Shown in pieces: positions 9,658 to 59,227 of a DNA stretch of 64,000 bases; the stretch's first letter is position 1, and each line of letters opens with the position of its first letter. The position numbers and the translations under genes are program-made. The stretch lies in assembly GCA_040386315.1 (NCBI GenBank), contig JAZKFS010000020.1, positions 4,620 to 68,619 on the forward strand, read 5' to 3'. The notes under the pieces are model-generated. The model saw nothing but the letters and a program-made list of their open reading frames with translations. It was not told the DNA's origin and ran no database searches. Source of the stretch: Bacteroidota bacterium. GTDB lineage: Bacteria > Bacteroidota > Ignavibacteria > Kapaibacteriales > DASPKH01.

Positions 9658-10476
9658 TTATTGCTTTATAAATCGTTGAATTTTTTTGTCGGTATCTGTT
9701 GTAATAACGATCGCATAAACTCCAGCTGGCAGATTATTCAGGTCAATTGGTTTTAAAGGGAGTGCTTCTCCTGATAAAACAGTTTGCCCTGTTACTGATA
9801 TGATCGAATATTTCGTAATATTATCCGAATGAATGAACAGCTTGTCTTGCGCAGGATTTGGATAAATACTTAGTACAGCATCTTGATTATTCGTTTTAAA
9901 ATCCTCGACTGATTCAGGTTCTGGCGACATATTAAAATGAACCGTGATACGGAGATTTTCTATATTTTCATTCGTATAGAGCGCTTCGGTTGAATCTTTT
10001 AAACTGATATTGATAATATTTCCTGTCACTAAATCCTGAATTCTTGCTGAATCTATATATTGTGAAAGTGGTTGCCATCTGATATAAAAATCTTTATAAC
10101 TGTCATCTTTATCACCCTGACGAACCGGCCCGGGCGCGATTCCCAAATCGTATGTCTTTGTAAACTGAGTTGTACTTTCAAATCCGCGGAAATCTCTATA
10201 GCTATAAATATTCAAATCCATTATTGTATCATAGAATGCAAAACGCCCACCCAACCCACTTGGCGGATAGCCAGGGTAAATGTCCTTTTCACCTAAAGCT
10301 TTATCGTAGCCATCAGTAGCTCCTTTTTTTATGCCAAATTCCAATGGAACGACAATGGTTTGTCCCGGTTTGCCGGATAGCATCATTTTAATAGTAATGC
10401 TATCAGGTTGGGCAAATGCAGAACTATAGCTAATTACCAGTGCTATAAATATTTTTAAAAGATTCTTTCCAGTCAT
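9658..10476 (-). CDS. T9SS C-terminal-sorting-domain secreted protein (last gene of the cargo operon)
   Basis: ORF listed as 9658..10521. The likely start is MTGKNLLKIFIALVISYSSAFAQ at 10476. The C-terminus YPNPAQDKLFIHSD...AGVYAIVITTD...RFIKQ matches the Por/T9SS tail pattern. Confidence 0.75.
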   Translation of the reverse strand: MTGKNLLKIFIALVISYSSAFAQPDSITIKMMLSGKPGQTIVVPLEFGIKKGATDGYDKALGEKDIYPGYPPSGLGGRFAFYDTIMDLNIYSYRDFRGFESTTQFTKTYDLGIAPGPVRQGDKDDSYKDFYIRWQPLSQYIDSARIQDLVTGNIINISLKDSTEALYTNENIENLRITVHFNMSPEPESVEDFKTNNQDAVLSIYPNPAQDKLFIHSDNITKYSIISVTGQTVLSGEALPLKPIDLNNLPAGVYAIVITTDTDKKIQRFIKQ

Positions 10477-10502
10477 ATCTACACCTCTTACGTAGAAGAT
10501 AT

Positions 10503-10542
10503 GTATAAAAATGGGCAACAACGGATTGCGCCATTGTTGCCC
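10503..10542 (-). terminator. Hairpin plus U-tract downstream of the 1029-aa gene (intra-operon terminator/attenuator)
   Basis: GGGCAACAA (10513-10521) pairs with TTGTTGCCC (10534-10542) across a 12-nt loop. On the minus strand it is followed by ATTTTTATAC. Confidence 0.5.
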
Positions 10543-10579
10543 ATTGTAGAATTAATTTTCCTTTTTAAAGGAATATTTC

Positions 10580-13500
10580 TTAGTGCGTTACAGTAATTGT
10601 GCGAACGATTACTGTTTCACCAGCAACGAATTTTACAAGATACTGTCCGCTTGGAAGTGTGCTTGCATTGAATGTCAATTCCTGAGTTGCTCCAGCTACT
10701 GCTCCACTAACAAGAGTTTGTACTTCCTGTCCAAGAGCATTAAATACTTTTACAGTAGCTACACCAGCATTAGGCATAGAATATGTAATTGTAGCAACAT
10801 TTGAAACCGGGTTTGGAGATACTTTTACATCAAAGTTAGCTGCACCATTGCTTGCCTGAAGCAATTTAATAGTACCTACTTTCTTATCTGCAATTTGAAC
10901 GCTCTCTCCTTTTCCAATATTACCAATGATTTCGCCTGTAGCTGCATTTACCACTGTATATTGAGCATTTGTGTTTTCAACTGCTACGTTTACAGGATAT
11001 TCTGCACCCTGGATTCTGATCGCTGCATTACCAGTAGCAACACTGCTGTTATTAGTAAAGCGTACATCGAATAGATCAGCCGGAGGTAGTGGCGGTAATT
11101 CAAATGATTCAGTATTTACTGTTGGATTTGCTATGTATAATGAACCATTATGTGTAGCATCAGTAATACTGATCTTTGCACTATTTGCATATACTTCCTG
11201 ATTGCTGACAGTATTAGCACTATTTCCACGGGTTTCAGCAATTAGCTTAAGGAATGCTGAACCTTCAGTTACTTTTAACCAGTAGCCAAGCCCTGGAACG
11301 AGTTCAGAAACTTCAACATACCCACGATCTGTCACATATCCGTACACTCCACCAGTTCTGCGTGGCGTCGGCTGTCCAGCAATTGGATCAAACTGAATTC
11401 TGTCAATATTTACCGGTACTGATAAACTACCGATAGTATTCCATCCGGTTGAGATATTTACTTCATCGCGGAAATCAATTCTCTGAAGGCGCGTACCAGC
11501 AACTTTATTGTCAACTACCGGGCCAAATCGAACAAAGTATCCAATTCCAACTTTAGGAACTGCTGCATCCTGATAAATTCCTTTTGAGTAAATAATCGGT
11601 TGCTCAGTTAAGCGATTAGGATAGATATCATCCCAGCTCGTGCTTGACGGACGTACCGGAAGAGAAAGTAAATTCCAACCTCTTCTTGTTACCGGATATT
11701 CAATTACTTTTGGTAATGTATATTCAATAATAAAGGAGCTAATAGCAGCATCGTTAATTGTAATTGAGCGACGTGTACCACCTAATCCCGTTCCTGCTGT
11801 ACGCAGGTCAAAGCTAAAGCGTGTTCCATTTAATGTATCACGAATAAATAGTTGTCCTTCGCTTGGGAAATCTTCGGTATCATACGTGACCGTTACCTGT
11901 GATGTCGTAAAGCCAGCACCACGCTCAAAACGTACTTTATAGATTAGCGTAGTATCTGCATTAACGTTCCGTATATCACGAGATTCATACATTCCTGTTA
12001 AATCTCCCAGGCCATTTACGTGATCTGTAACTTCAGGATTTGTGCTGTATAAACGTGCGCTGAAAACTCCTGTGCCCTGAGGATCAGGATATGGAAATTC
12101 TCCAAACAATGTATCTACACCATCTGTTGCACGTAATCCGGTTCCGATCATTAATTTTGAAGTAACCGATCCGGCACCAACACGTGTAATATCAAAACGG
12201 ATACCTGTTCCACCACCATTTGTATTATTTGGCTCGTTCGGACGGCGAACATTGATATATGTTACTTTCAAACGAACCGGTGTAAATTCTGCAGATGCTG
12301 AACGAAATGTGATATAGCCCACATAGATACCTGTAGCATCCAAATCGTCCTTAATCTGAGGATCAAGTTCATTTGGATCTACTACGATACGGAAATTCAA
12401 TAATGGATCTTTCTGTGTTGTTACAGTTTGATCGGCATTTTGAAATCCAGGACCTCCAGGTCCAAGAATACCATTATCAATGTAATCTATCTCACCAAAT
12501 CTTCTAGCAGAAGGAATTGGGTTTTTTGCGCCAAAGGTTAAAAACTTTAACCATTTTGAGCTTGACTCAACACTAATATCTGTGAGGCGTGTAAAAGATA
12601 TTGACGGATCCGCGATAACATTGATCGCCTGTGTACCCCGGCTGTTTGCTAAATTTGGATTGATTGTTGCGCCATCTTCTACTACTATTGGAGTAGTTAA
12701 CTCCCATAAAGTATTGGAAAGTTGACGCACTTTAGCATCTAAACCAACATTCGGTAAGAAAGAAAAGCGCGGAACATCTGTAACTACTGCATAAATCACA
12801 CCCGGCTTAATCGGTTCTGCCGGATTTGAAAGACGATCTAATCCAGCAAGTCCAAAATTGAGGTCACCTACTGCCGGAGTAGGATACTCAGGAGTTCCTG
12901 GGAATGGGGACTGCTGAGCTATATTTAAGTCATTATACCGTAATGTATCGTTAGTAATAATGATAGGAGTATTTGTTGTACCAACTCCTGAGCTTGTTCC
13001 TACTACACGAAAACGGATATATAATAATTCCTGAAACTCACGTGCATTACAATCAACAGATTTATCATATGGATCTGTTTGTCCTGCTGCGGTAGTCGGA
13101 GCTAAGGGCTTTGTAGAAGCTCCTGCAATACGGATTCTTCTACCGAAGAAGCGGTTAGGAGTTACTACACCAAGACTTGTCTGATATGTATCATCCTCTG
13201 TATCATCAAAGCTAAGATCAAATTCTCTTGCAAGTGAATTAGTATCACTGGAAAGCGGGCCAAAACGCTCAAGGCCTACTGCTCTAAAAATACGCTCATC
13301 GTATTGTACTTTAAACTGAAAGCTATAAATCGGCGTAGCATTGAACCTAGGGTCAATACCATTTAAAAAGCAATTTTTTATAAATACAGGCACAAGGATT
13401 TCCCGAGGCTCACTATTTAAATTTATTGCTTTCGGTACATATATCCGGTCATCCGGATAATTTGTCCCATTCCCAGTTGAGTTGGGATTTGGACGGGATA

Positions 13501-13636
13501 TCAAGCTCAATTGTGGAACTTGCGGTCTAAGTAGCTGTGCCTGAGCAAATGAGCTGCCACAGATGACCATGCCCATAATCAAAGCGAAAGCTTTCAGGAG
13601 ACTATTTCTCCCTTGTAACGGATACCAGTTTTGCAT
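10580..13636 (-). CDS. Large T9SS cargo protein with a cohesin-like N-terminal module
   Basis: ORF listed as 10580..13669. The signal peptide is best from M12 (MQNWYPL...ICGSSFAQA). The cohesin-like stretch is ILVPVFIKN...IYSFQFKVQYDERIFRAVGLE. T9SS tail: SPNPVSNVATITYSM...GQYLVKFVAGE...ITVTH. Confidence 0.8.
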   Translation of the reverse strand: MQNWYPLQGRNSLLKAFALIMGMVICGSSFAQAQLLRPQVPQLSLISRPNPNSTGNGTNYPDDRIYVPKAINLNSEPREILVPVFIKNCFLNGIDPRFNATPIYSFQFKVQYDERIFRAVGLERFGPLSSDTNSLAREFDLSFDDTEDDTYQTSLGVVTPNRFFGRRIRIAGASTKPLAPTTAAGQTDPYDKSVDCNAREFQELLYIRFRVVGTSSGVGTTNTPIIITNDTLRYNDLNIAQQSPFPGTPEYPTPAVGDLNFGLAGLDRLSNPAEPIKPGVIYAVVTDVPRFSFLPNVGLDAKVRQLSNTLWELTTPIVVEDGATINPNLANSRGTQAINVIADPSISFTRLTDISVESSSKWLKFLTFGAKNPIPSARRFGEIDYIDNGILGPGGPGFQNADQTVTTQKDPLLNFRIVVDPNELDPQIKDDLDATGIYVGYITFRSASAEFTPVRLKVTYINVRRPNEPNNTNGGGTGIRFDITRVGAGSVTSKLMIGTGLRATDGVDTLFGEFPYPDPQGTGVFSARLYSTNPEVTDHVNGLGDLTGMYESRDIRNVNADTTLIYKVRFERGAGFTTSQVTVTYDTEDFPSEGQLFIRDTLNGTRFSFDLRTAGTGLGGTRRSITINDAAISSFIIEYTLPKVIEYPVTRRGWNLLSLPVRPSSTSWDDIYPNRLTEQPIIYSKGIYQDAAVPKVGIGYFVRFGPVVDNKVAGTRLQRIDFRDEVNISTGWNTIGSLSVPVNIDRIQFDPIAGQPTPRRTGGVYGYVTDRGYVEVSELVPGLGYWLKVTEGSAFLKLIAETRGNSANTVSNQEVYANSAKISITDATHNGSLYIANPTVNTESFELPPLPPADLFDVRFTNNSSVATGNAAIRIQGAEYPVNVAVENTNAQYTVVNAATGEIIGNIGKGESVQIADKKVGTIKLLQASNGAANFDVKVSPNPVSNVATITYSMPNAGVATVKVFNALGQEVQTLVSGAVAGATQELTFNASTLPSGQYLVKFVAGETVIVRTITVTH

Positions 13637-13681
13637 AATGCTTTCTCCTAATTTTGTAAATAGGACCATTGAATAAAAACT

Positions 13682-14878
13682 TTATTTATTAAGTGTTATA
13701 ATTTCCCTTGTATTAGTAAATACATTCCTTATAACTGCGATGTATTTACCTGCCTCTAATGAATTTTTATCTATAATTATGGAATTTCCTGTACTTCTGT
13801 ATTTTCCTCTTAATTGGCCCAGGATTGAATATACCATAATTTCATATCTGTCATCTATCTCTATTTTCCAGCTATCTTTTAAATCCTCTACTTTCCATTC
13901 TTTTATATTATTTATTCTATCTATTGTATTAATGATCTTTTTTTGGTTTGTAACTGAGATTGACACACTATCTTTTAAAAAAGAAACACACGAGCAATCA
14001 TTTATATCTTTTAAAACCACATTTATGCTACTTACTTCATTTGTATCTCTTTCTCTTTTAAAAACTGCTTTAATCTTGCGATCTACTGCTGAATTTGTAT
14101 CCAGATTTTTAAAAGAAATTTCAACTCCCGTTATTGTTGAGTCCACTTTTACAATTTCAATATCTTGCGTCTCTGCTGCTATTTGTGATATTTTAAAACT
14201 GGATGTATTATAATCCACTTTTAAAATCCCCTCCCTTAGCTTTGTTCCAGTCGAGGCATTTATAGAAAATATTACCTGCTGAGTAAGAATGCTATCATTA
14301 AAATTTAAACTATCTTGTGATGCTTTTACAGAAGCAAATCTTTTTAAAGACTTTCCTTCCTGCACCAGTACTTTTGCATTTACCGTATCGGTAATCGGCC
14401 TTTTAAATTCTATATCAAAATATGATATTTCTACATTAACTGTATCTGCACATGTGCTTAGCACAGTACCCAGGAAGGCTATCAGTGGTTCACTCCCTGT
14501 TACAGGAATATCTTGGATATTTCCACCTGTCGCTCTTACCACTCCTTTACCGGCAAAGTAACCCTGGGTTGGAAATCCTGTAAATTTTTCACTAAGAGTT
14601 CCACTTGTCAACACCTGATCAAACTTTATTTTATTTTGATCAAATTTTAATTCTATGTCAAAGTACAGTAAACTATCACTTTTTAAAACTTGTCCTATTT
14701 GTCCTACTTGTCCTAATGATACAGCTACCACTACCCGCTTACTTCCCGAGCAAACATCTACTGTATCAACTGCATATGCAGATATTGTTGCTACTTGCGC
14801 CATCAGGGGCTGCGCACTGATAATTAATATCAGTGGCAGCACCCATGTAAGCACTTTTTTTAAAAGCAATTGCTGCAT
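13682..14878 (-). CDS. AT-rich, K-rich T9SS-tail secreted protein with a cohesin-like N-terminal module
   Basis: Signal peptide MQQLLLKKVLTWVLPLILIISAQPLMAQ. VVVAVSLGQ...LLYFDIELKFDQNKIKFDQVLTSG. C-terminus IMVYSILGQ...AGKYIAVIRN...ITLNK. Confidence 0.7.
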   Translation of the reverse strand: MQQLLLKKVLTWVLPLILIISAQPLMAQVATISAYAVDTVDVCSGSKRVVVAVSLGQVGQIGQVLKSDSLLYFDIELKFDQNKIKFDQVLTSGTLSEKFTGFPTQGYFAGKGVVRATGGNIQDIPVTGSEPLIAFLGTVLSTCADTVNVEISYFDIEFKRPITDTVNAKVLVQEGKSLKRFASVKASQDSLNFNDSILTQQVIFSINASTGTKLREGILKVDYNTSSFKISQIAAETQDIEIVKVDSTITGVEISFKNLDTNSAVDRKIKAVFKRERDTNEVSSINVVLKDINDCSCVSFLKDSVSISVTNQKKIINTIDRINNIKEWKVEDLKDSWKIEIDDRYEIMVYSILGQLRGKYRSTGNSIIIDKNSLEAGKYIAVIRNVFTNTREIITLNK

Positions 14879-14879
14879 C

Positions 14880-16823
14880 TTAACGAATTACAACAAGTGT
14901 TTTATTCATTGTCATACCTTCTCCTTGTAGGCGATAGGTATATGTACCGGCTCCTACTGAATTACCGCTGTCGTCTGTTCCATTCCATTCAGTTACATTC
15001 ATTCCCTTATCCATCAGACCTGCTTTTAAAGTTTTCACTTTATTACCAAGCATATCAAATATAGCAAGTTCGTAATTTCCATTTTGTGGAATTGCAACTG
15101 TAATAGAAGTTGTATTAACTACAGGATTTGGATAGTTAGATAATGCTTGTGTATTTGCATTTTCATCCTTATTTACCAATATCGACTGTCCTGACTTTTG
15201 ATTATCATTAAATCGAACTTCATTTATTGTTAAGCTTGCATCTGAAGTTTTTACAGTAATATAGGCAATTGGCTCGTTTGCATTAAATTCGCCAGTTGCA
15301 CTGATTACTACAGTACTTCCATTCCCTTCAATAAGCACCTTGTTTTCACCAAGTTCTACGCCACTAACTTCAAGAATCTCTCCGTTCACGTTGAATTTGG
15401 TTGCAATAGCGCCTTTAGCAAAACCATTTAATTGTACAGGGATACGATATGTATTTCCATCTACATTAACTGGTGTTCCGATTGCTACATCATTTGCAGA
15501 CTTTTCATTAACACCAGCACGTCCGTAAGGGATAATGGTGTCAAGCAACCAAGGAAGTGTTGGTACACGTCCTGACATGTATAGCATAATTAAAGCAGCA
15601 TCATATTCCGTTGCTTCGAAGAAGAATGATGGATTTCCTGCAAGAAATGGCAAAGAATTATCTGGTGCCACATTTGTTAAATCATAATCAGACAGATTAC
15701 GATTTATCACCGAGCGACGGTAACGTGGTACATCAGTTGAGTTATCAGCACTTCTTGTAGAAAAATAATACCGACCGTTATGATTTACATCTCCATGAAA
15801 AGCATTGCGCTCGCGAAGACTATCTAATGGACGATTCATTGCTTGTGCACGTAGGATAACGCGAGCATCATTCACTGTTACAAAACGATTCTGTGGTAAT
15901 CCACGGTGCTTACCAACCTGTGAAAGATCAGCATCGCCATCACCCCAACCACTTACAAGAAGACGTACATTTACACTTAGACGGACAACAGTGTCACTAC
16001 CACCTGAAGGCTGCCATAAATTTGAAAGGCGTGTACTTGTACGAGCTGTATTAATGTTACCATTAAACTCAAGTGCATTAATATAATCTCCATTTTCCCC
16101 TTTAATTCCAACTGACGCGCCTTGAGTTACTACAGTTGAACCGTTTCCACCAATTTGTCCGTATGCAAATTCAATATCACCTTGAAAATTGTTTGTATTT
16201 CCTAATCTTAGGCTATCTGACTCATATAGATAAAGTTGAAAATTAGCAACACTTGATGGAATAAGCTCATTATTAATATTCAAATTTTGCCATTGCACTA
16301 TAAATGCATTTCTGAATGTCCCGCTTCCATCATTTACAGAACGTGTTCCATAAGAAATCTCTGATGGCAAATACTGTGATTCACCAAGTGTTCCCGGACC
16401 TTTACGATAATAGTGATCTCCAAAAAATGGAGCAACAATATTTACCGGTTGTGTATTTGTAAACAGTGACTGAGGATTATCTGCCGGAATATTAGGTGGC
16501 TGTGTTTTCGTAAACAACACAAATCCATTAATATTTATCCAGACATCACTATAAAGCGTACCATTATAAGAAAATTGGAATGGTAGATTAACTCGAACAT
16601 ACCCATCATCTCTATCAGCAGGATCACTTGATCCAATCTGTGGGGGAAGTCTAAAGTCGTCAGCAGGCAGGACTGTCTTGCTAACCAGTGGAGTATAAGG
16701 ACGATTGCCTACTTTGGTAGCAGCCCTAAAATCCGCCGTAACATCTGCCTGTGCCTGTTGTGTAGTTGCGCCAAAGTATAAACCTAGAGCTGCACCTACT
16801 GCCAGAAGGACACGGTATTTCAT
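14880..16823 (-). CDS. T9SS cargo protein with dockerin-like Ca-binding segments and a cohesin-like module
   Basis: Signal peptide ...TTQQAQA. GDGDADLSQ...VNDARVILRAQAM and HGDVNHNGRYYF...EYDAALIMLYMSG. YRIPVQLNGFAKGAIATKFNVNGEILEVSGVELGE. T9SS/FlgD-Ig-like tail YPNPVVNTTSITV...FDMLGNKVKTL...GTYTYRLQGEG. Confidence 0.8.
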   Translation of the reverse strand: MKYRVLLAVGAALGLYFGATTQQAQADVTADFRAATKVGNRPYTPLVSKTVLPADDFRLPPQIGSSDPADRDDGYVRVNLPFQFSYNGTLYSDVWININGFVLFTKTQPPNIPADNPQSLFTNTQPVNIVAPFFGDHYYRKGPGTLGESQYLPSEISYGTRSVNDGSGTFRNAFIVQWQNLNINNELIPSSVANFQLYLYESDSLRLGNTNNFQGDIEFAYGQIGGNGSTVVTQGASVGIKGENGDYINALEFNGNINTARTSTRLSNLWQPSGGSDTVVRLSVNVRLLVSGWGDGDADLSQVGKHRGLPQNRFVTVNDARVILRAQAMNRPLDSLRERNAFHGDVNHNGRYYFSTRSADNSTDVPRYRRSVINRNLSDYDLTNVAPDNSLPFLAGNPSFFFEATEYDAALIMLYMSGRVPTLPWLLDTIIPYGRAGVNEKSANDVAIGTPVNVDGNTYRIPVQLNGFAKGAIATKFNVNGEILEVSGVELGENKVLIEGNGSTVVISATGEFNANEPIAYITVKTSDASLTINEVRFNDNQKSGQSILVNKDENANTQALSNYPNPVVNTTSITVAIPQNGNYELAIFDMLGNKVKTLKAGLMDKGMNVTEWNGTDDSGNSVGAGTYTYRLQGEGMTMNKTLVVIR

Positions 16824-16872
16824 AATTACTCCTTTATTTTTTTTAAATTATTATCGTATTAGTAATCTTGCT

Positions 16873-16898
16873 GAGGGTTCTTTATATAAAGAACCCTC
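16873..16898. promoter_or_regulatory. Perfect 26-bp palindrome between the giant adhesin gene and the next operon gene (RNA hairpin, no U-tract)
   Basis: gagggttctttat|ataaagaaccctc: the reverse complement of the first 13 nt equals the last 13 nt exactly. It lies in the 91-bp spacer 16824-16914. Confidence 0.6.
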
Positions 16899-16914
16899 CT
16901 GCAAAACATTATTC

Positions 16915-19900
16915 TTAGCGAATAATCATCATCTGACGTGTCATATTCACTGAACCACTTGATAGACGCGCTACATACATACCTGACGGTAATGCTATGC
17001 CATTTCCATCTTTTGCATTCCATTCTATTACGTTTGCAGTCCCTGCAGGATAGAATCCGCTAAAGTCAGCTACTTTGCTTCCTAAAGCATCAAATATCTC
17101 AAACGTTACCTTTCCTTCTACAGGAAGAGTAAATTGCATTTTCGTGCTGCCTGAGAATGGATTAGGTATGTTTTGGAAAGATTCGCTATTGAATCCTGCT
17201 ACCGGCTGCTCGTCTTCTACGCCACTTGCAAAGTCATATCTAATAACGAAGTTGCTTATCGCGTCACGGAAGATAGTAACAGTAATTGTACCATCAGCAG
17301 CGCTTGTATCAACATTGATATCTTGAGCACTACGAGATGCACCTGTTCTCATATTGATCGCAAAGATATTACCCTGCGAGCTACCATCTAATAACCACCA
17401 TGAACTTCCTGCCGGGTTGCGTACTGCATCAGTTTTTGCTGGAACATTATTTTTATTCCATTTGATGGTTACAGGATAATTAGGCGAGGTATTTCCAACT
17501 ACATCACCCGCCTGGAAGCGGCCTTTGTAATATGCTTCGCCGATCACCCCAGCTACTGCTCTTGGGAAAATATCCCTTAGGGCACCATTTGACGAAGGTA
17601 TTGTCCAACGAGTGTCATACACATCAATTGGTGGAATTGGAGGTAATTCATATTCACAATAGTTAGAATCGAGTTTACCTACTGCATTTGCAGATTCACC
17701 AGTTGTAGCATTGACTGCTGTACCCCATTCAATAACCTGGAATGCGCCTTTGCTATTTGAAATAGTCATTGGTACAATAAAGTCTGTTGGTTGAGATACA
17801 TTAATTTTATAGCTGATTGTCCTTCTTGCTCCAGCTTTATCTGTTGCTGTAATGTAAAGAGTTGCTTTACCTTGAGCATCAAGAGTATCCTGGAAGTTCG
17901 TAGCTGTAATCGTCAGGGTTACTGAATCCGTTGTCTGAGGTCCCGAAATCACACTTGGGGTAACTGTAAAGCCACTTTCAGTTGTAATTGTAACGGTCTC
18001 ATTTCCATTAGTTCCCTTACGTGTAAGATCAATATCTCTAAGCACGATTGTGCCAGTATATGATTTACCAATCTCAATACATTGGACAGTCGGAATTGCA
18101 GTTAGGATCGGAGGATGATTTACAGCTATTACGCGAATTGTGAATGTGCGTACATCTGTTAACCCGCCTTCATCTTTTACAACTACCGTAAATGTTACGG
18201 TTGTATCGTTAAATGGCAAGTCTGTTACACGTGGTGTTCCAAAAAGAATTCCACTTACAGGATCAATCTTTAACCAGTTTGGCGCTGTTTTTGAATTGCG
18301 CACATCGAATGAACCTGCTTCATCTGCGAAACACTCATCACGAGGGATAAATGTGCTTGTATCGTTAGCATAAAGCAATTTGAATCTCTGATCCTGGCCG
18401 AAGTTTGGATCTGTTACACGGACTCGACGTAGTGAATCAAGAAGTGCTATATTATAATCCTGATCTTCGATTGCATCAGGGAAAGTAGCATTCTCAATAC
18501 GTGGAGCAACGTTTACCATTACACGGCGTGTAAGTGTATTAATTCTTCCATGCCCATCATTAACCACAAATGTTACAGTAGTATCGGTATTTAGAGCACC
18601 TTCAAACTGACGTACCGGGGTTAATAAATTATATGCCTGAGCTGAATCAATTCTAATACTTAGCTGCCCTGCTGATGTAAAGTCTGCACCAAATGGATCC
18701 AGAGCATTAAAATCACCATATTGTCTAAAGTACTGATTAGACATCCAGGTAGGACGTACTAGAGTCACTTCATCTGTTACTGAATCAGTTGGATTACGGC
18801 GAAGTGCAATTGATTGGAATCCATAAGCTGTTTTACCATAACGGAAGTCCCAACCGCGTGCTGCTGCTGCCGCATCTTCAGCTTCATCATCAGTCTGAAG
18901 GTCAATCTGGAAACGTAGTTTATCTGTTAAATTTGCAACAAGCATCTCATCTGTTCCACACTTATAAACATTCTGTGTGAAGATAGGATTAGTATCTGTT
19001 ACAAATACTCTAAACTGATATGTAGCTATTGAATTAGCACCTACATTAATTGTATCTTGTTGTAAGTAGCGTGCATTCGTTACATCATAAGCTTCCGCAT
19101 GGAAATATGGCGGGAAGATATTAATATATCGTGCAATAACACTATCAGCTAATCCTGCGGCACGTAATGAATCCAATGTGTTGATATTTGGCGGGAAATT
19201 ACGAATTCCTACCGTTACCATTTCACCACCCGGAACCACAAATGGATTCGTTGGACGGCCACCAAGAACACGATAGCCACGTGCACCGAATGCTGTTCCC
19301 TGTGAAGCATTGATTGTTGTATCAGTTAGCCAATATGAAAGTCCAGATCCCGGCTCTACACTATATGTATAGGTTAGTTGCGTGAAATCATTTGGAGTCA
19401 ATACTGAACGCGGATCGTAGAAGATATTTGAATCTACTCCGCTGATTGTAAAGATTGAATCACGTCCCGGAGCACGTTCTAGATCATTTACATCACGAGG
19501 ATATGTTCTATCTTCGCTTACAAAGATCATATTACGCAACTCTACCGGCAGAAGATTACGCAGGTTGTTGATGTTACCTGTAAATACTGGAGGAGGTGTT
19601 GAAACTCCTACGTTAAATACTAACGCATCATCATAAGCTGCATTTACACCTTCATTCCAAAGTACCGTACGAGAAACTACCCGAACTAAATCTCCATTTG
19701 CAACCGGTAACGCTCTATAGCGCTCACCAGCCCAGAAATTAATACGATTCACCCTGTTTTGATCAATCTGACTATTGTCATCGTTTGATATTGGAAGGCG
19801 AGGACGATTGCTAAACTGAACTCCAAACTCGTTTGGAGCGCCTAAGACATTCGAACCAGCCTCATACCGGCGTCCGACTAGTGCTGCCGCATCTTCATTT

Positions 19901-22900
19901 GCTCCATTCTGAGCTAATTGAGCTAACAACTCACGTCCACTACCTAAGTTTGCTAATCCTTCAGCCGAACGGCGGAATGTCGTATTACCAGTTCTATTTG
20001 CTGAATCTGGTAGCATTTCAATCCGTCCTCTGAATATCTCGCTAGACGTTGTGACTTGGCGAAGATTCGCACGTACAAAGTCACCCGTTGTTTCGTTGAT
20101 TACGAAGAATACAGTTTCATTAACTGTAGGAGCATTTGGATGATCCTGGTTACTCAACTCTGCTGTTCCGCTATAATTAGCGCGTGTTTCAAGGAATAAA
20201 GGATAACCAATTGGCTGGTCGCCCTTGAATTCACTTTGCAGAGCATTGATATTAGCATCAACTTCAGCTACAAATGGATCACGTCCTAAACGGCGTACAT
20301 AGCGATTAAATGAAGGCGAACCCGCAGTATTTGTAAAACGACGAATTGATTTTGGAATACCTACAGCAAAGTCCTCAATCGGTGACATGCGACGACGTGA
20401 ATAATCAGCTGTCTTAATGTCCGTACCTTTATCAAAAAGATCATATATACGGCCCTGCATTAATAGTTTCTCTGGAATACTATTTGCAGCCGGTGTATTT
20501 TGATTATCAAATGCTATGTTGCCAACAGGAATTGGCGTATAGTTAAAACGTTGAGAGGATTCAAACGGCCCTTGCTCTTTAGGATTTGAACTATTGCGGA
20601 TATAACGCAAATGCGTAGTACCGTCACCAGCTACAAAGAAAGTCTCCTGAAGAGTTCCTGATTCCGGTAGTATTGTCGTTACCGGTGCTTCAGTCTGGCC
20701 CCAGTAATTACCGCGAAGAGTATCAACACCACCACTTCCAATAAGGCCGGTTGACGAAGTTCCTTTTGTATTAGGAGCATCAGGAAGGCGAATCAGAAAG
20801 CGTGCTGTATTATCATACATTGAATTCGCAGCAATGCTTGAAGAAGCATACGGAAGAGGCCCGATAATTTCTCCATAGAGAATTGCTCCCGCAAGATCAC
20901 TTGATGCAGGGTTTTCTCTGAAAGCCGAAGTTGTCCGGATATATGGCCCTGTAATTGCATTCTGCTCACGGCCTGTATCAGATAATGCAGTATTATTAGT
21001 AATAAGTGAGCGCTGGAATACTAATTTTAGATCGTAGTTATCTGAATATACCGCTGCTCCTGTGAATGCAGTATTATTTTGAATACGCACGCGATTAAAG
21101 ATAATAGAATCAGTACGACCGATATTATTTGTTGAAGCTTCATCAAGAATGTAAATAGCACCACCTAAGCCGGTACCGTTTTCAGGTAATCCTACGCCAG
21201 GGTGTGTACGTACTACATCACCTAATTGAGTTGTTCCTGTACCAAGCTGTGCAAGATTTACAACAGCTTCATTATCAATGAATCGTGTAAGCATCCGTGC
21301 ATCAGGCGGCGTAATTGCTGAAGCAGCATTTGTAAATACTTCATTTGACGAAGTAAATGTCGTTGCTTCACCTGATGGCAAGGTTGTTAACTGATCTAAG
21401 TCTGTTAACATATATCGTCTGGAATCATCACCAGGGCTAACCATTGCTACTGCTCCACCATTACTAAAGTTTGCGGTATTCATTACGAATTCCACTCCTT
21501 TTAGAACATTAAGAGTAGCGTTTAGCGTATAGATGGCACCACCACCACGAACCAACGCACGGGATGAAGCTTGAAGAGTTGCATCTGAAGTATCAACAAA
21601 TCTTCCTAGACCTACCACATTGCTGTCCAAGATAGCACGAACTATTTGTACATAGCGGCGCGCTAATGGCAAAGCCGGATCAATATTTAATGTAATAGCA
21701 CCACCGGAATACCCTGCTGTATTACGTGTAAATTCTACACGGAATGGGCGTGAATAACCAATAACCAGGTTACCTGATACACCACCAGCTCCATATACGG
21801 TCATGTTTTTCTGAGCATAGATAGCACCACCATGAAAGGTAGCTACGTTACGATCAAATACAACATTATACCCATAGTTGCGAGTTAAGATAAGTGCATC
21901 AGATCCACCAATGATTGGTGATGGGCGTACTTCGCTCAATGTCGCTGAATTACCAACGAAGATAGCACCGCCTCTTGAAGCTCTGTTGCTTAAGTAGTGT
22001 GATGGATATCTTGAATCAAGCGTCTGACCGCCACGAACCTGTAAACGTCCTGCAGTAGCATCTACATAAATAGCTCCACCCATTGAATAGCTCAATGAAT
22101 TTGTACCTGCAGTAGGATTATCACTGATAAATGGAACAATCGCTTGATTAGCATTGAATCTACCGGCAATTGTTACAGATGTCTGCTCACCTACATATAG
22201 TGCACCACCACGCGCTCCCAATGTACCTGCATTATTCTGAAGATTGTTAGCAATGTTACCGCTAAAGTTAATATAATCATTAGAACCGGTAGAAATACCA
22301 TTAACATCATTATTAACACCTAATGCCACTTCAATAGCACTTCCACCATTAGCAGCACTTGCACCGGCAATAACCATTGCCCCACCAAATGCCTGATTTC
22401 TGGCAGCTGTTCCATTAAAGGTTGCAGCATTATTTACATCGTCAGTTAAGATCGTACCTACACCCGGTACAAATATCTGGCGAACATTTGCATTAATTAC
22501 TCTATTTGCATCAAAGTTTAACTGACGAACACGTCCTAATAACACCGCTAAACGTGCATCATCCACACCTTGACGCTGTACATCTGTAAATGGCTCAGCT
22601 GTTGCCGTAGCAAGATTATCAATTGCAGGAATAGCCTGAACTACGGCTGCACCGGTTGAATTTTCAGTTACAGCACCGTTTGCAGTACCAGGATAATTCG
22701 GAAGCGCTGCTGTTGATACAGTTGGAAATAGTCCAGTTCCAACCGGAGCTTCCAGAAGTTGAAGAGCACCACCGCGATTACGGGCAAAGTTGTTTGTGAA
22801 ATTACAGTTTACAAGCCACGTACGTGACGAGAAACTTGTAAGAGCACCACCACCACCATTAGAACGTGAACGTAAATCATCATTTACTGCTGCACGTGCT

Positions 22901-23847
22901 GCTGTTGTTCCACCAGCTTGGTAATAATCTCTTCTATCTACTGTAGTATCTTTGCGGAAATCTTGAAAATTTACGTCACGGAAAAATGCAGCCCGTGCAC
23001 CCGGAAGAACAACGATATGTCCATACTCACGCGAGAAAGCGTTTACACGGCGACCTTTAAAGGTAATCGTTGATGGAGTAATATTTACACTACTACCATT
23101 TGCACGGAGGAATGATTGAATATTAATGTTTGGGTCAGTATTTGCAAACCGTAAGCGAGCTGCTGTATAAAGCAACGCTGCTTCAGGAGTTGCAAGAAAC
23201 TGCGGAGAATTCGTTGTTGCAGTCGGGTCACTTAAGTTTATTAAGTTACGATTACGCGAATTCGCTGTACCACCGGTTTGACCAGGAGCAAGCGTAGTAT
23301 CCAGGACAACGTTATAAACAAAATTATTTTTGCCTGAATTTGCAGTATTACGATTTCCTGCTACAGTTACCTCATTCGGTGTTGAAATTGTAAACACACC
23401 CGGAGATAAAAAGAAACCAGGATCAGCAAAACCATAAGGGCGCTGGATGCCCGGAGTTACCGGGTCTAGATCAACGTTAATAAAATTAACATTGTTGTAT
23501 GTTACCGACATACGCCCGTCAGCGATAATACGCCCGCCGGTCGAGTCAATCATACGGCCGTTATCGGTAAACTCTACAGTTGTACCCGGCTCAATAATTA
23601 AAGTACCGCCAATAGTATATGTACCATTGACGCGATAGAGAGTATCTCTCAAAAATACTCGGACTTCGCCGGGACTGACACGCCCATTGACTTCCGCAAT
23701 TGGCGGCGCAGCAAACACTTCAGAAGCTGAAAGTGCAAGCACCATCCATAAAGCTAAACGAAACAAACGTTGCATAGAACCTCCGTTTGGTAAAAAAGAA
23801 TTAACCACATTATTACTATTATTTATAATTTTTAAATCTGTTTTCAT
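16915..23847 (-). CDS. Giant (about 2300 aa) T9SS-secreted adhesin: Pmp-like right-handed beta-helix repeats, Ig/cadherin-like (He_PIG-type) domains, T9SS tail
   Basis: About 10 GGA[ILV] repeats, often with an FxxN context (NRGGALQLL, RGGALYVGE, MGGAIYVDA, RGGAIFVGN, HGGAIYAQK, SGGAITLNI, GGGAIYTLN, LGGAIYILD). APNWLKIDPVSGILFGTP...VVVKDEGG. Tail IPNPFSGSTKMQF...FEIFDALGSKV...GMYVARLSSG. The real start may be the second ATG at 23775 (MQRLFRLALWMVLALSASEVFA). Confidence 0.85.
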   Translation of the reverse strand: MKTDLKIINNSNNVVNSFLPNGGSMQRLFRLALWMVLALSASEVFAAPPIAEVNGRVSPGEVRVFLRDTLYRVNGTYTIGGTLIIEPGTTVEFTDNGRMIDSTGGRIIADGRMSVTYNNVNFINVDLDPVTPGIQRPYGFADPGFFLSPGVFTISTPNEVTVAGNRNTANSGKNNFVYNVVLDTTLAPGQTGGTANSRNRNLINLSDPTATTNSPQFLATPEAALLYTAARLRFANTDPNINIQSFLRANGSSVNITPSTITFKGRRVNAFSREYGHIVVLPGARAAFFRDVNFQDFRKDTTVDRRDYYQAGGTTAARAAVNDDLRSRSNGGGGALTSFSSRTWLVNCNFTNNFARNRGGALQLLEAPVGTGLFPTVSTAALPNYPGTANGAVTENSTGAAVVQAIPAIDNLATATAEPFTDVQRQGVDDARLAVLLGRVRQLNFDANRVINANVRQIFVPGVGTILTDDVNNAATFNGTAARNQAFGGAMVIAGASAANGGSAIEVALGVNNDVNGISTGSNDYINFSGNIANNLQNNAGTLGARGGALYVGEQTSVTIAGRFNANQAIVPFISDNPTAGTNSLSYSMGGAIYVDATAGRLQVRGGQTLDSRYPSHYLSNRASRGGAIFVGNSATLSEVRPSPIIGGSDALILTRNYGYNVVFDRNVATFHGGAIYAQKNMTVYGAGGVSGNLVIGYSRPFRVEFTRNTAGYSGGAITLNIDPALPLARRYVQIVRAILDSNVVGLGRFVDTSDATLQASSRALVRGGGAIYTLNATLNVLKGVEFVMNTANFSNGGAVAMVSPGDDSRRYMLTDLDQLTTLPSGEATTFTSSNEVFTNAASAITPPDARMLTRFIDNEAVVNLAQLGTGTTQLGDVVRTHPGVGLPENGTGLGGAIYILDEASTNNIGRTDSIIFNRVRIQNNTAFTGAAVYSDNYDLKLVFQRSLITNNTALSDTGREQNAITGPYIRTTSAFRENPASSDLAGAILYGEIIGPLPYASSSIAANSMYDNTARFLIRLPDAPNTKGTSSTGLIGSGGVDTLRGNYWGQTEAPVTTILPESGTLQETFFVAGDGTTHLRYIRNSSNPKEQGPFESSQRFNYTPIPVGNIAFDNQNTPAANSIPEKLLMQGRIYDLFDKGTDIKTADYSRRRMSPIEDFAVGIPKSIRRFTNTAGSPSFNRYVRRLGRDPFVAEVDANINALQSEFKGDQPIGYPLFLETRANYSGTAELSNQDHPNAPTVNETVFFVINETTGDFVRANLRQVTTSSEIFRGRIEMLPDSANRTGNTTFRRSAEGLANLGSGRELLAQLAQNGANEDAAALVGRRYEAGSNVLGAPNEFGVQFSNRPRLPISNDDNSQIDQNRVNRINFWAGERYRALPVANGDLVRVVSRTVLWNEGVNAAYDDALVFNVGVSTPPPVFTGNINNLRNLLPVELRNMIFVSEDRTYPRDVNDLERAPGRDSIFTISGVDSNIFYDPRSVLTPNDFTQLTYTYSVEPGSGLSYWLTDTTINASQGTAFGARGYRVLGGRPTNPFVVPGGEMVTVGIRNFPPNINTLDSLRAAGLADSVIARYINIFPPYFHAEAYDVTNARYLQQDTINVGANSIATYQFRVFVTDTNPIFTQNVYKCGTDEMLVANLTDKLRFQIDLQTDDEAEDAAAAARGWDFRYGKTAYGFQSIALRRNPTDSVTDEVTLVRPTWMSNQYFRQYGDFNALDPFGADFTSAGQLSIRIDSAQAYNLLTPVRQFEGALNTDTTVTFVVNDGHGRINTLTRRVMVNVAPRIENATFPDAIEDQDYNIALLDSLRRVRVTDPNFGQDQRFKLLYANDTSTFIPRDECFADEAGSFDVRNSKTAPNWLKIDPVSGILFGTPRVTDLPFNDTTVTFTVVVKDEGGLTDVRTFTIRVIAVNHPPILTAIPTVQCIEIGKSYTGTIVLRDIDLTRKGTNGNETVTITTESGFTVTPSVISGPQTTDSVTLTITATNFQDTLDAQGKATLYITATDKAGARRTISYKINVSQPTDFIVPMTISNSKGAFQVIEWGTAVNATTGESANAVGKLDSNYCEYELPPIPPIDVYDTRWTIPSSNGALRDIFPRAVAGVIGEAYYKGRFQAGDVVGNTSPNYPVTIKWNKNNVPAKTDAVRNPAGSSWWLLDGSSQGNIFAINMRTGASRSAQDINVDTSAADGTITVTIFRDAISNFVIRYDFASGVEDEQPVAGFNSESFQNIPNPFSGSTKMQFTLPVEGKVTFEIFDALGSKVADFSGFYPAGTANVIEWNAKDGNGIALPSGMYVARLSSGSVNMTRQMMIIR

Positions 23848-23885: not shown

Positions 23886-24608
23886 TTATTCAATTACCGT
23901 GCCAAGTCTTCCGAGAGCGCTTTTTGCTAAGCCGGAAAACTCAGTATATTCATTCTGACCGACAACTTCACGATACAGTTTTTCTGCTTTCTGCTTATCA
24001 TTTGCTTTTTCATAAGCCAGAGCAGCAAAGTATTTATATCGTTCTTCAAGTCCTATTTCTGCTCCGGCAGATGCTGCTTTTTCATATAGTTCCGCAGCAT
24101 TTTTAAAATCTCCCTTCTCTTCCTTAGCAGCGGCAAGGCCGGCCTGTGCACCCGCCTGTACTAATGGAGAATCCGAATCATCAGCATCTTCAAAATATTT
24201 CACTGCCTGATCGGCTTTGCGTTGCGCCAGCATTGCATTGCCTGCATAAAGGGCCGCTACATTTCCGGTTTCCGTCCCATCATAATCACGAACAATCCTC
24301 TCCAAACCATATACGCTTTGACCACGAACTTTGCGTGAAGGATCGCCTTTTAAAGCTTTTTCATAATCTCCTGCATCATAATATTCACGAATGCGAGAGA
24401 GCGCCAAGGCTCCTTCATTCGTTTTTGCTTCGTTCTGTGAACGGAAAAACAGCCAGGCAGCAGCGGCTATCAGTACAACTGCCGTAATGCCTCCAATCAG
24501 TTTGAGGTTTTCCTGAAGTTTCGTCCGTACATTTTGAAGCTGTGTATCTTCAGCTGTAGTCTCTTCAGCATCGTATACCGCTACATTTCCTTTTGGATTT
24601 GTATCCAT
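23886..24608 (-). CDS. Membrane-anchored TPR-like protein (YfgM-type architecture)
   Basis: ORF listed to 24674. The likely start is MDTNPKGN at 24608. One TM helix (IGGITAVVLIAAAAWLFF) followed by TPR-like helical repeats (AALYAGNAMLAQRKADQAVKYFE, AAELYEKAA, ALAYEKANDKQKAEKLY). Confidence 0.6.
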   Translation of the reverse strand: MDTNPKGNVAVYDAEETTAEDTQLQNVRTKLQENLKLIGGITAVVLIAAAAWLFFRSQNEAKTNEGALALSRIREYYDAGDYEKALKGDPSRKVRGQSVYGLERIVRDYDGTETGNVAALYAGNAMLAQRKADQAVKYFEDADDSDSPLVQAGAQAGLAAAKEEKGDFKNAAELYEKAASAGAEIGLEERYKYFAALAYEKANDKQKAEKLYREVVGQNEYTEFSGLAKSALGRLGTVIE

Positions 24609-24677
24609 TATCCTTCTCGCTTTCTGGTGATTTTGGAATATTAAAAGATTTTTTAAACACTCTTGGGATAACAATAG

Positions 24678-24751
24678 TGCGCCCGAAGGGGATCGAACCC
24701 CCAGCCTTTGGAATCGGAATCCAACGCTCTATCCAATTGAGCTACGGGCGC
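24678..24751 (-). tRNA. tRNA-Arg (anticodon CCG)
   Basis: The reverse complement folds as a cloverleaf: acceptor GCGCCCG/CGGGCGC, D arm GCTC-AATTGGATA-GAGC, anticodon arm TTGGA-TTCCGAT-TCCAA, T arm with the TTCGATC loop, discriminator A. No encoded CCA. Confidence 0.9.
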
Positions 24752-33800: not shown

Positions 33801-34071
33801 AGCGCACCCAAAAAGCAGATTTCGTCAGGCCGTAGCCCGGCACATCTTCCTTGCTTTTTAAAAACTTTCCTGAATTTTCGGGCGACGAAACATTTGCAAT
33901 GGTGAGCTTCCCGGCTTTATCCTCCAGAATTTCAAGATGTTTACCAAGCACAACTTTGCCGGCTTTGTCGCTGAGCACAGCCGTTTCCTGCGCCGCGCCT
34001 TTAAAAGGCAGACAGCACAGGAGGAAAACGAATATTTTTAAAAACTGCGGAAGGCGCGGCTGTGCTGTCAT
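30844..34071 (-). CDS. Sensor histidine kinase: 7TMR-DISM extracellular domain, 7 TM, HisKA/HATPase, and a C-terminal TPR array of about 330 aa
   Basis: 1075 aa. Signal peptide and periplasmic domain, seven hydrophobic helices (aa about 190-400), coiled coil, H-box IAAHDLKNPL, N/G boxes NLISNAIKYSP...DEGPGL...GLGLSIVKKL, then about 8 TPR-like repeats (NNIGN.Y...G....AL.Y..QSL). Confidence 0.85.
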   Translation of the reverse strand: MTAQPRLPQFLKIFVFLLCCLPFKGAAQETAVLSDKAGKVVLGKHLEILEDKAGKLTIANVSSPENSGKFLKSKEDVPGYGLTKSAFWVRFTVVNSLEESAEWLLELSYPVLDEAQLYTAQLDGSFKKVASGDKFPFSMRELKHRNIIFRLPLEKNTSNTYYMRLQTSGSVQIPLTLWSMQAFIAKDHEEQIVLGLYYGIMLIMVLYNLSVFIFLRDRTYVSYTGYLVFFTLFQMTINGLSFEYLWPQSPWWANKALMFSAFAFQCFALIFTKEFLNTKVNTPKLNKFITWQMYSSLLLIALSLFIEYSVLIRIAIAMAFPFVGMVIAAAILSLKNGYRPARFYVSAWAVFVAGLFIFVLKTVGVLPNNLITQYGVQVGSALEVVLLSVALADRISILKRDKEKAEREALNAEIYRLKNVEIAQALEKVQMLNERLVDSQEETEALNKNLLEANQYLTELNNEKNEFLGIAAHDLKNPLAAIILSSEILSRYYDRFSKEKILDKIKSIETTATRMRDIVSNLLDVNAIESGKINISLEVLDIVSIARQLSEEYRERANAKNISIVFKTQLHSLTVKADKHALQEVLDNLISNAIKYSPHGKSVTISIEKSVLKTAVLKVQDEGPGLNDDDKQKLFGKFARLSALPTGGESSTGLGLSIVKKLSEAMNAKIWCESEPGHGAAFLFEIPLANEAEITHSIPDTIRALEEKIKTLSLETERIDALNSLAMYKSKIDPQEALKICDETYRLSEKMGYTIGLATSIQHAATCYWRVGLQPAAIAKFEESAAIFKKIGDVKGEASSFNRLSTVYYDLGNYPKSLQYAQQSQAMFEASGDEFGVAASHNNIGNAFKNMGEHQRALKHYLQSLKMHEENGNRQSQSFALNNIGNLYSAMGEHERALNYQFQSLEIKRELGDKFGEASSLNNIGSYYAHLGDNATALDYHFKSLDLRRKIGDKKGEALTLLKLGGAFVRQEDNEKALEYLAEALAIFRAIGNTMGEASCLTETANILLKTGKVNEAIGLLKESLEIVTESNAKSDERKIHITLAEAYEAIGDGENAVKHRNKSQETTSISVQSF

Positions 34072-59078: not shown

Positions 59079-59092
59079 TGAGATTAGCGTGC

Positions 59093-59227
59093 TTTTAAAA
59101 GAAGTAGAGATAAGCTGCAAGATATGAAATAGTTTTTAAAAACCAATATTCCAGAACTCTTTTTAAAAGCCGATTCAGCTATTTCTCATAATTTTGCTTT
59201 TAAAACGTCACTGCATTCTTTTAAAAA
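59093..59227. repeat. 5 TTTTAAAA copies in a divergent promoter region (DUF2961 gene / prfC)
   Basis: Copies start at 59093, 59134, 59162, 59199 and 59220. Confidence 0.85.

Follow-up and report, generated by a model that had tools for sequence, protein, structure and literature searches.

The locus described here raises a question of how its genes belong together: do five genes packed on one strand encode the parts of a single surface structure, or five surface proteins that happen to be neighbors? The genes lie in a 64,000-nucleotide stretch of a Bacteroidota bacterium of the Ignavibacteria (assembly GCA_040386315.1, contig JAZKFS010000020.1, positions 4,620 to 68,619). We call this stretch the 64-kb window, all coordinates refer to it, and g1-g5 are our names for its five minus-strand open reading frames (ORFs). 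The original prediction for this locus was an operon of cargo proteins for a type IX secretion system (T9SS), which might assemble through cohesin- and dockerin-like modules. On balance we lean towards an answer of that kind, in which five co-transcribed T9SS cargo proteins build one lineage-specific surface assembly that is conserved across Kapabacteria-type Bacteroidota. This answer starts from the structure of the genes, their T9SS tails, the cohesin fold in the predicted structure of g3, the modules that the proteins share, the class-wide synteny and the lack of detectable enzymes. The genes, in order of transcription, are the following (CTD, C-terminal domain).

16915-23847, minus strand: g1, 2310-aa ORF, giant T9SS cargo protein, probable start at M25
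14880-16823, minus strand: g2, 647 aa, T9SS cargo protein
13682-14878, minus strand: g3, 398 aa, fast-evolving T9SS cargo protein with two predicted cohesin-fold domains and a CTD
10580-13669, minus strand: g4, 1029 aa, T9SS cargo protein
9658-10521, minus strand: g5, 287-aa ORF (272 aa from M16), small T9SS cargo protein made of a shared module (module X) and a CTD

The ORF coordinates on the minus strand reproduce exactly the five packed, co-directional genes that had been claimed, with intergenic gaps from g1 through g5 of 91, 1, 12 and 58 bp, and every peptide string cited for them is present in the translations. Two of the starts are likely internal to the ORFs. For g1 the likely true start is M25 (nt 23775), which is the start conserved among orthologs. 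For g5 it is M16 (nt 10476), identical to the NCBI start, and the g4-g5 gap then becomes 103 bp.

Export signals were sought with TIGR04183 (T9SS type A sorting domain, cutoff 23 bits), which four of the proteins pass and g3 alone does not.

16924-17166, minus strand: g1 T9SS type A CTD, TIGR04183 26.4 bits
14889-15134, minus strand: g2 T9SS type A CTD, TIGR04183 33.9 bits
13688-13894, minus strand: g3 T9SS CTD, TIGR04183 16.6 bits (weak here, clear for the family)
10592-10822, minus strand: g4 T9SS type A CTD, TIGR04183 36.5 bits
9661-9867, minus strand: g5 CTD, TIGR04183 46.3 bits

The g3 tail is clear at the family level: Por_Secre_tail (PF18962) matched 46 of the 70 positional orthologs, and the family profile found solved T9SS CTDs in the PDB, including those of RemA and RemZ, with E down to 1e-7. 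In the g5 family, 35 of 46 orthologs had a CTD. Because four proteins pass TIGR04183 and the g3 family is clear, we conclude that all five carry a type A tail, as had been predicted; for g1, g2, g4 and g5 this comes directly from TIGR04183, and for g3 through its orthologs and family profile only. By eye, all five N-termini look like signal peptides, with a basic n-region, a hydrophobic core and an AxA-like site.

We then asked how the block is kept among relatives. The window proteins were compared by tblastn with 82 related syntenic loci, and positional orthologs were scanned against Pfam. Wherever a locus was long enough for the order to be read, it was the same: a YfgM-like tetratricopeptide repeat (TPR) gene followed by g1-g2-g3-g4-g5. 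This agrees with the co-conservation that the original prediction required. The wider order is an E1 dehydrogenase gene, the TPR gene and g1-g5, with GT2, an unknown gene and GT9 often coming next. Both g1 and g2 were detected in all 82 loci, g4 in 75, g3 in 72 and g5 in 48, although the count for g5 is too low because its identity is just 24-34%. The TPR gene was upstream of g1 in 68/82 loci. Identities were 41-54% for g1 orthologs (82/82 loci), 31-43% for g4 (75/82) and only 22-36% for the positional orthologs of g3 and g5. A relative of g2 is encoded by 185 species-representative genomes. The source metagenome-assembled genomes (MAGs) are named Kapabacteria, Kapaibacterium, Chlorobiota, Ignavibacteria or Bacteroidota.

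Since the order is kept across related loci, the block probably builds one surface structure. The competing explanation is that g1-g5 are five independent surface proteins or adhesins, each anchored by its own CTD and held together through shared ancestry and regulation only, which we consider possible but doubtful. Conserved synteny alone can reflect ancestry, because the flanking housekeeping genes (E1 dehydrogenase, GT2 and GT9) are just as syntenic, and this is a point in its favor. However, gaps as short as 1-12 bp and an order that is invariant over deep divergence favor a functional unit, and the positional orthologs of g3 and g5 are never lost even at 22-36% identity. In addition, g1 and g2 (50% and 44% mean column identity) appear far more conserved than variable or free-standing adhesins usually are. 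A mobile or variable adhesin island was rejected: the locus is syntenic and chromosomal, and the base composition of the region has no island-like anomaly.

One genome, Kapabacteria KatS3mg039 (BPHJ01000001.1), has two copies of the TPR-g1-g2-g4-g5 block (loci L011 and L052), ~23 kb apart and in opposite orientation. By tblastn, g3 was detected in the L011 copy only, and an E1 dehydrogenase gene precedes only the L052 copy.

What could hold the proteins together? The original prediction saw a stretch resembling the cohesin core in each of g2, g3 and g4. Single-sequence searches of the window proteins against Pfam, NCBIfam and the PDB gave no cohesin or dockerin match, and PF00963 (Cohesin) gave nothing at E<=1, so that its gathering threshold was not reached. 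With orthologs, family profiles and predicted structures, the claim stood for g3 as a predicted fold and probably for g4 (ortholog Pfam matches and 4dh2_A); for g2 it stood at the fold level only and failed at the level of sequence signal. The modules are located as follows.

14360-14791, minus strand: g3 residues 30-173, predicted cohesin-fold domain 1, containing the motif SDSLLYFDIELKFD
13946-14338, minus strand: g3 residues 181-311, the dyad's other beta-sandwich, probably cohesin-like too (Foldseek, 2xdh_A)
12680-13537, minus strand: g4 residues 45-330, N-terminal module with the signature PIYSFxFKxxYD, probably cohesin-like (PF00963 in orthologs)
15174-15491, minus strand: g2 residues 445-550, cohesin-like beta-sandwich, resemblance at the fold level only (Foldseek)

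The case is best for g3. Cohesin PF00963 matched 9 of 70 g3 orthologs (best E 2.3e-5, sub-threshold) and was second only to the CTD. The g3 consensus matched Cohesin in domain 1 only, at 15.5 bits vs a cutoff of 24.1 (E 0.02), and the family profile found cohesin 2xdh_A in the PDB at positions 195-276, with an E of 0.19 that is individually non-significant. The AlphaFold model of g3, built on a 22-sequence alignment, has a predicted local distance difference test score (pLDDT) of 85.3 and three beta domains, namely sandwiches at 30-173 and 181-311 plus the CTD. Among PDB structures, Foldseek matched it best to the ScaA type II cohesin dyad from A. cellulolyticus, with an E of 2.5e-10 in an alignment that covers 359 columns. 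The model qualifies as a cohesin fold, defined as a nine-stranded beta-sandwich jelly-roll of ~140 aa that superposes on solved cohesins, and for g3 we regard the case as decisive in terms of predicted structure.

The g3 family also has four cysteines (C43, C143, C295 and C297) that are invariant or nearly so, although the orthologs average only ~24% identity. They include a CxC motif that closes the second sandwich, and they may form disulfides or a metal site.

For the N-terminal module of g4, Cohesin PF00963 was the top recurrent Pfam family (20/69 orthologs, best E 8.8e-4, sub-threshold). The sole PDB match of the g4 family profile was cohesin 4dh2_A, aligned at the PIYSFxFKxxYD motif with an individually non-significant E of 0.52, and the family consensus of the module matched nothing in Pfam. 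Cohesins were the only non-CTD matches in the PDB for the g3 and g4 family profiles, and we believe from these recurrent matches that the g4 module is a probable cohesin module. The g2 sandwich at 445-550 is confident in its AlphaFold model, and its best Foldseek match in the PDB is 2w1n, a C. perfringens cohesin plus FN3 structure (E 7e-8); against the cohesin-like module 2jh2 its TM-score is 0.55-0.56. Neither a profile search of the PDB nor the ortholog Pfam scan gave a sequence-level cohesin signal for it. The structural check that had been proposed was run on g2 and g3, and for both the best PDB matches were cohesin structures. Profile-profile comparison of the cohesin-like modules of g2, g3 and g4 was not significant (g3 domain 1 vs the g4 module reached only ~25% probability in hhalign), so the three cannot be called paralogs of one another.

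A different set of modules does link the proteins by homology.

17203-17775, minus strand: g1 residues ~2025-2215, module X (hhalign vs g4 and g5)
11690-12262, minus strand: g4 residues 470-660, module X (hhalign)
9877-10416, minus strand: g5 residues 36-215, module X (hhalign)
19603-20325, minus strand: g1 residues ~1175-1415, homologous to the N-terminal cohesin-signature module of g4 (hhalign 96%)

Module X (~150-190 aa) is common to g1, g4 and g5 with hhalign probabilities of 98-99%, and in g1 it has the motif ...ATDG..D..GE.ELPP.PP..FD.RW.... The g1 copy reached 99.1% (E 6e-19) against g4 470-660 and 98.1% against the body of g5; g4 470-660 against the g5 body reached 98.8%. Residues 820-950 of g4 are a partial second module X (98.3% to g1). 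The second link, between g1 ~1175-1415 and the N-terminal module of g4, has an E of 2.7e-9 over 222 columns, and a hidden Markov model of the g4 module matches g1 orthologs with E down to 1e-12. Paralogous modules that link g1, g4 and g5 in this way (hhalign 96-99%) are typical of subunits that evolved together, and they argue against five independent adhesins.

Between its modules, g4 has a conserved, beta-rich region (residues ~660-830) with repeated GWN(L/T)(L/I)S/G...P and PG(L)GYW(I)K motifs. Pfam matched it in none of 59 orthologs, and the region may represent a domain not yet described.

We looked for glycoside hydrolases, carbohydrate-binding modules (CBMs) and other catalytic domains with Pfam and NCBIfam, and none was detected in the five proteins or their orthologs, which is in line with the earlier claim that the operon has no obvious glycoside hydrolases. 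This bears on whether the locus is a cellulosome-like scaffold, in which the cohesins of g3, g4 and g2 would recruit dockerin-bearing enzymes encoded elsewhere, in the manner of a Cloacimonadota scaffoldin that carries a CTD. The g3 cohesin fold appears genuine in the model, and another phylum of the FCB group offers a precedent in which cohesin/dockerin proteins come with a T9SS-type CTD (PMC8542988). But domains for carbohydrate binding or catalysis are absent from the operon, outside g2 the 64-kb window holds no dockerin loop of the canonical DxNxNG type, and Kapabacteria MAGs are reported to have relatively few secreted glycoside hydrolases (PMC10576277). We consider such a scaffold improbable. 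A classical cellulosome was rejected, as there are no enzymes or CBMs and no other dockerin-type loop in the window.

The largest protein, g1, had been described as a combination of chlamydial Pmp-type repeats and Ig domains, and both are there.

21148-22851, minus strand: g1 residues 333-900, Pmp-type GGA[ILV] repeat region, predicted right-handed beta-helix (motif count, TIGR01376, Chlam_PMP)
18130-18366, minus strand: g1 residues 1828-1906, He_PIG Ig-like domain (PF05345, 28 bits, cutoff 24)

Residues 333-895 hold 11 GGA[ILVM] motifs, vs 0.36 expected from composition, and TIGR01376 reaches 24.2 bits, above its cutoff of 15. Chlam_PMP (PF02415) matched 12/13 g1 orthologs (best E 2e-16), and He_PIG also matched 12/13. 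Over the 13 orthologs the mean column identity of 50% comes with hundreds of invariant positions; g1 looks unusually conserved on this measure and unlike a fast-evolving adhesin. The identity of g1 as a Pmp autotransporter was rejected. Pfam and NCBIfam gave no match in g1 to a C-terminal autotransporter beta-barrel, and the C-terminus is a T9SS type A CTD. Because this CTD replaces the autotransporter barrel, g1 falls outside the Pmp family.

A giant repetitive protein raises the further idea of a gliding-motility adhesin set, in which g1 would be a mobile adhesin like SprB or RemA and g2-g5 would be accessory or adaptor proteins. In Flavobacterium johnsoniae, the sprCDBF cluster has a giant adhesin gene arranged with smaller genes. 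The giant T9SS-secreted g1, followed by smaller co-transcribed genes, resembles it, and the g3 CTD profile matches the RemA and RemZ CTDs in the PDB. But there is no similarity to SprB, SprC, SprD or SprF beyond the CTD, no gliding genes were seen nearby in the window, and the CTDs here are type A, whereas SprB has a type B CTD with a PorP-like partner, which is missing here. A gliding set is very improbable in our judgment, and an SprB-type gliding operon was rejected for its wrong CTD type and lack of similarity.

If the cohesin-like modules have a partner inside the block, it had been proposed to lie in g2, where two dockerin-like calcium-binding segments were described.

15969-16733, minus strand: g2 residues 31-285, NIDO-like beta domain (PF06119, 22.3 bits, under the cutoff of 25)
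15498-15968, minus strand: g2 residues 286-442, acidic-loop 'dockerin-like' segment, putatively calcium-binding (invariant motifs)

The g2 family (444 homologs, full length, ~40% identity) is the most sharply conserved family of the block, with a mean column identity of 44%, and its AlphaFold model has a pLDDT of 79.9. The NIDO-like domain is a confident domain in that model, and the family consensus scores 22.7 bits with PF06119. Residues 286-442 are the most conserved part, with 18 invariant positions in 70 sequences, and their motifs are invariant or nearly so: WGDGDxDxS followed by an ND-helix, and DVNHNGR (GDVNHNGR) followed by a YD-helix. Such motifs make a calcium site plausible.

The dockerin claim is not supported in the form in which it was put forward. 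A type I dockerin (PF00404) has two ~22-residue repeats in which a 12-residue EF-hand-like calcium loop runs directly into an alpha-helix. In g2, the loop motifs DGDADLS and DVNHNGR are separated from the helices VNDARVILRAQ and YDAALIMLYMSG by ~15 and ~55 residues, and the second insertion includes a beta-hairpin in the AlphaFold prediction, so the canonical repeat geometry is missing. Dockerin_1 was the top recurrent match of the segment in orthologs but was sub-threshold (17/70, best E 0.0086). In the window g2 itself there was no Pfam match to Dockerin_1 at E<=1, the family consensus of the segment had no Pfam match, and the family profile found no dockerin in the PDB. In hhalign, the segment gave a probability of 2.3% against the CelS/CelD dockerins, the best among the modules tested, although that dockerin profile is thin, with two sequences. 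The AlphaFold pLDDT over 286-442 is also low, at about 50-85. Because geometry, Pfam, the PDB profile search and hhalign all fall short of support, the dockerin identity of g2 is unproven, and so is a cohesin-dockerin pairing within the operon.

There is a longer variant of g2 (927-933 aa; P0016-P0032, and 10001-12784 of locus L083) in which the NIDO-like domain at the N-terminus is duplicated in tandem. It represents a sub-lineage, and the synteny of its locus is otherwise identical.

Several results weigh against a single assembly. The g2 segment departs from dockerin geometry and stays below all significance thresholds, and the three or four cohesin-like modules have no detectable homology to one another, apart from the weak g3-g4 comparison. 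Mirror-tree residual and partial correlations of the g2 segment with the cohesin-like modules ranged from -0.09 to 0.24, with none standing out. Each protein has its own CTD anchor, so a cohesin assembly is not required for surface display. The flanking housekeeping genes are syntenic as well, and no T9SS machinery genes were seen among the genes of the 64-kb window. The reading of five independent adhesins draws on the same separate anchoring domains, the non-significant dockerin homology, the lack of a co-evolution signal and the equally syntenic neighbors. In that reading the cohesin folds would be generic beta-sandwich spacers, or would bind host, prey or matrix proteins or glycans, and the g2 segment would be a structural calcium site; here too we would say possible, with doubt.

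The single surface assembly that we favor could be built in three steps. The signal peptides would take each protein over the inner membrane by Sec, and the type A CTD would then be recognized by the T9SS, with the protein staying tethered to the outer surface. This anchoring is by analogy with the type A CTD cargo of Porphyromonas and Flavobacterium. At the surface, the proteins would associate via non-catalytic modules, which we infer from the operon structure, the co-conservation and the module sharing. In this scheme g1 would provide a long Pmp-repeat beta-helix stalk with Ig domains, and the smaller subunits would bear protein-protein interaction folds, that is, cohesins and module X. The cohesin-fold modules would be two in g3, probably one in g4 along with the homologous module of g1, and the cohesin-like sandwich of g2. 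The acidic, probably calcium-binding segment of g2 may serve one of the cohesins as its ligand.

A bolder form of this assembly is a class-wide, vertically inherited surface nanostructure whose T9SS-exported subunits are locked together by cryptic cohesins and by a calcium site in g2 that resembles a diverged, 'split' dockerin. We think this form unlikely. If true, a Gram-negative lineage would possess a surface architecture that is built on cohesins and free of enzymes, for example an S-layer-like coat or a contact apparatus, and this would mean that cohesin-dockerin-type assembly had been recruited to a core envelope structure and not to polysaccharide degradation.

The gene models of the block differ in places from public ones. 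NCBI names g1 'T9SS type A sorting domain-containing protein'. Its model of g4 has only 606 aa (MES2764879.1) vs the 1029-aa ORF here; the public model is probably truncated, because the N-terminal ~420 residues, which include the cohesin-signature module, are conserved across 69 orthologs. A scan for sigma-70 promoters and terminators found sites no commoner than in shuffled sequence, with a sigma-70 model that is inappropriate for Bacteroidota promoters. Two features lie directly upstream.

23886-24608, minus strand: YfgM-like TPR protein, 240 aa from M23 (Pfam TPR_21 PF09976 and TPR_14)
24677-24751, minus strand: tRNA-Arg(CCG), with the E1 dehydrogenase gene on one side and the YfgM-like TPR gene on the other

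The TPR gene is a sixth gene that moves together with the block, 38 bp upstream of g1, and in its protein a single predicted transmembrane helix precedes a TPR_21-type domain. A 262-aa ORF call from a TTG abuts the tRNA, so the real start is the later M23, and the NCBI model likewise has 240 aa.

Farther out, between g5 and the GT2 gene, there is an 803-aa Pyr_redox_2 protein (7203-9614, minus strand). It has this position in just 4 of the first 82 loci (L009, L058, L062 and L065), plus L083, and resembles a lineage-specific insertion in the otherwise conserved g5-GT2-unknown-GT9 run. About 7 kb upstream of the block lies a 1075-aa hybrid sensor (30844-34071, minus strand) in which a histidine kinase is joined to 7TMR-DISM domains (extracellular and 7TM) and to TPR repeats at the C-terminus. 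Another T9SS cargo gene (56406-59120, minus strand; 904 aa, DUF2961 plus Por_Secre_tail) is unrelated to the operon.

The locus matters because cryptic cohesin folds in a fixed operon, found in at least 185 species genomes, make a concrete and testable candidate for what forms the main surface structure in an uncultivated class. The locus adds T9SS cargo to the known range of non-cellulosomal cohesins. Were the modules to pair, nature would here provide a display scaffold that assembles itself on the surface of a Gram-negative cell; even without pairing, the block offers a useful marker set and new domain families, namely module X, the acidic segment of g2 and a bacterial NIDO-like domain.

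How does the block compare with known systems? With chlamydial Pmps (TIGR01376/PF02415), g1 shares its 11 GGA[ILV]-type repeats and a predicted right-handed beta-helix. However, Pmps belong to the type V autotransporters and have their beta-barrel at the C-terminus, whereas g1 ends in a T9SS type A CTD and adds Ig, cohesin-signature and module-X domains. The TfsA/TfsB S-layer of Tannerella forsythia and SprB/RemA of Flavobacterium are large, non-enzymatic CTD proteins that are exported by the T9SS, displayed on the surface and encoded in small operons. The proteins here are likewise large non-enzymatic CTD cargo, and the g3 profile matches the CTDs of RemA and RemZ, but outside the CTD there is no sequence similarity and the module composition is different.

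The nearest known folds are cellulosomal and non-cellulosomal cohesins (PF00963; 4uyp, 2vn5, 1ohz, the 3l8q dyad, 2xdh and C. perfringens 2w1n/2jh2). The tandem domains of g3 resemble the ScaA cohesin dyad, and both the g3 and the g4 family show the ...F.F.l.YD... signature and recurrent weak PF00963 matches. The window proteins differ in that they stay under the Pfam gathering threshold and end in T9SS sorting domains in place of SLH or sortase anchors. They also come without CBMs or enzymes, without an identified canonical dockerin partner, and from a Gram-negative Bacteroidota host.

The closest published analogue pairing cohesins with a T9SS-type CTD is the 'cellulosome-like' system inferred for Cloacimonadota, with a Ca. 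Stygibacter scaffoldin that has tandem cohesins plus a CTD (PMC8542988). Ca. Stygibacter too is an FCB-group bacterium with cohesin modules and a C-terminal T9SS-type domain for surface attachment (PMC8542988). Its cohesins and dockerins are Pfam-detectable, and it has CBM2/CBM3 and dockerin-bearing hydrolases and peptidases (PMC8542988), whereas here the modules are cryptic, enzymes are absent and a fixed five-gene operon is conserved class-wide. For these genes, public annotation goes no further than 'T9SS type A sorting domain-containing', 'FlgD Ig-like' or 'hypothetical', and our literature searches found no description of the locus. The components are already known, as T9SS cargo, the cohesin fold and Pmp repeats; their combination, their cryptic nature and their class-wide conservation are new.

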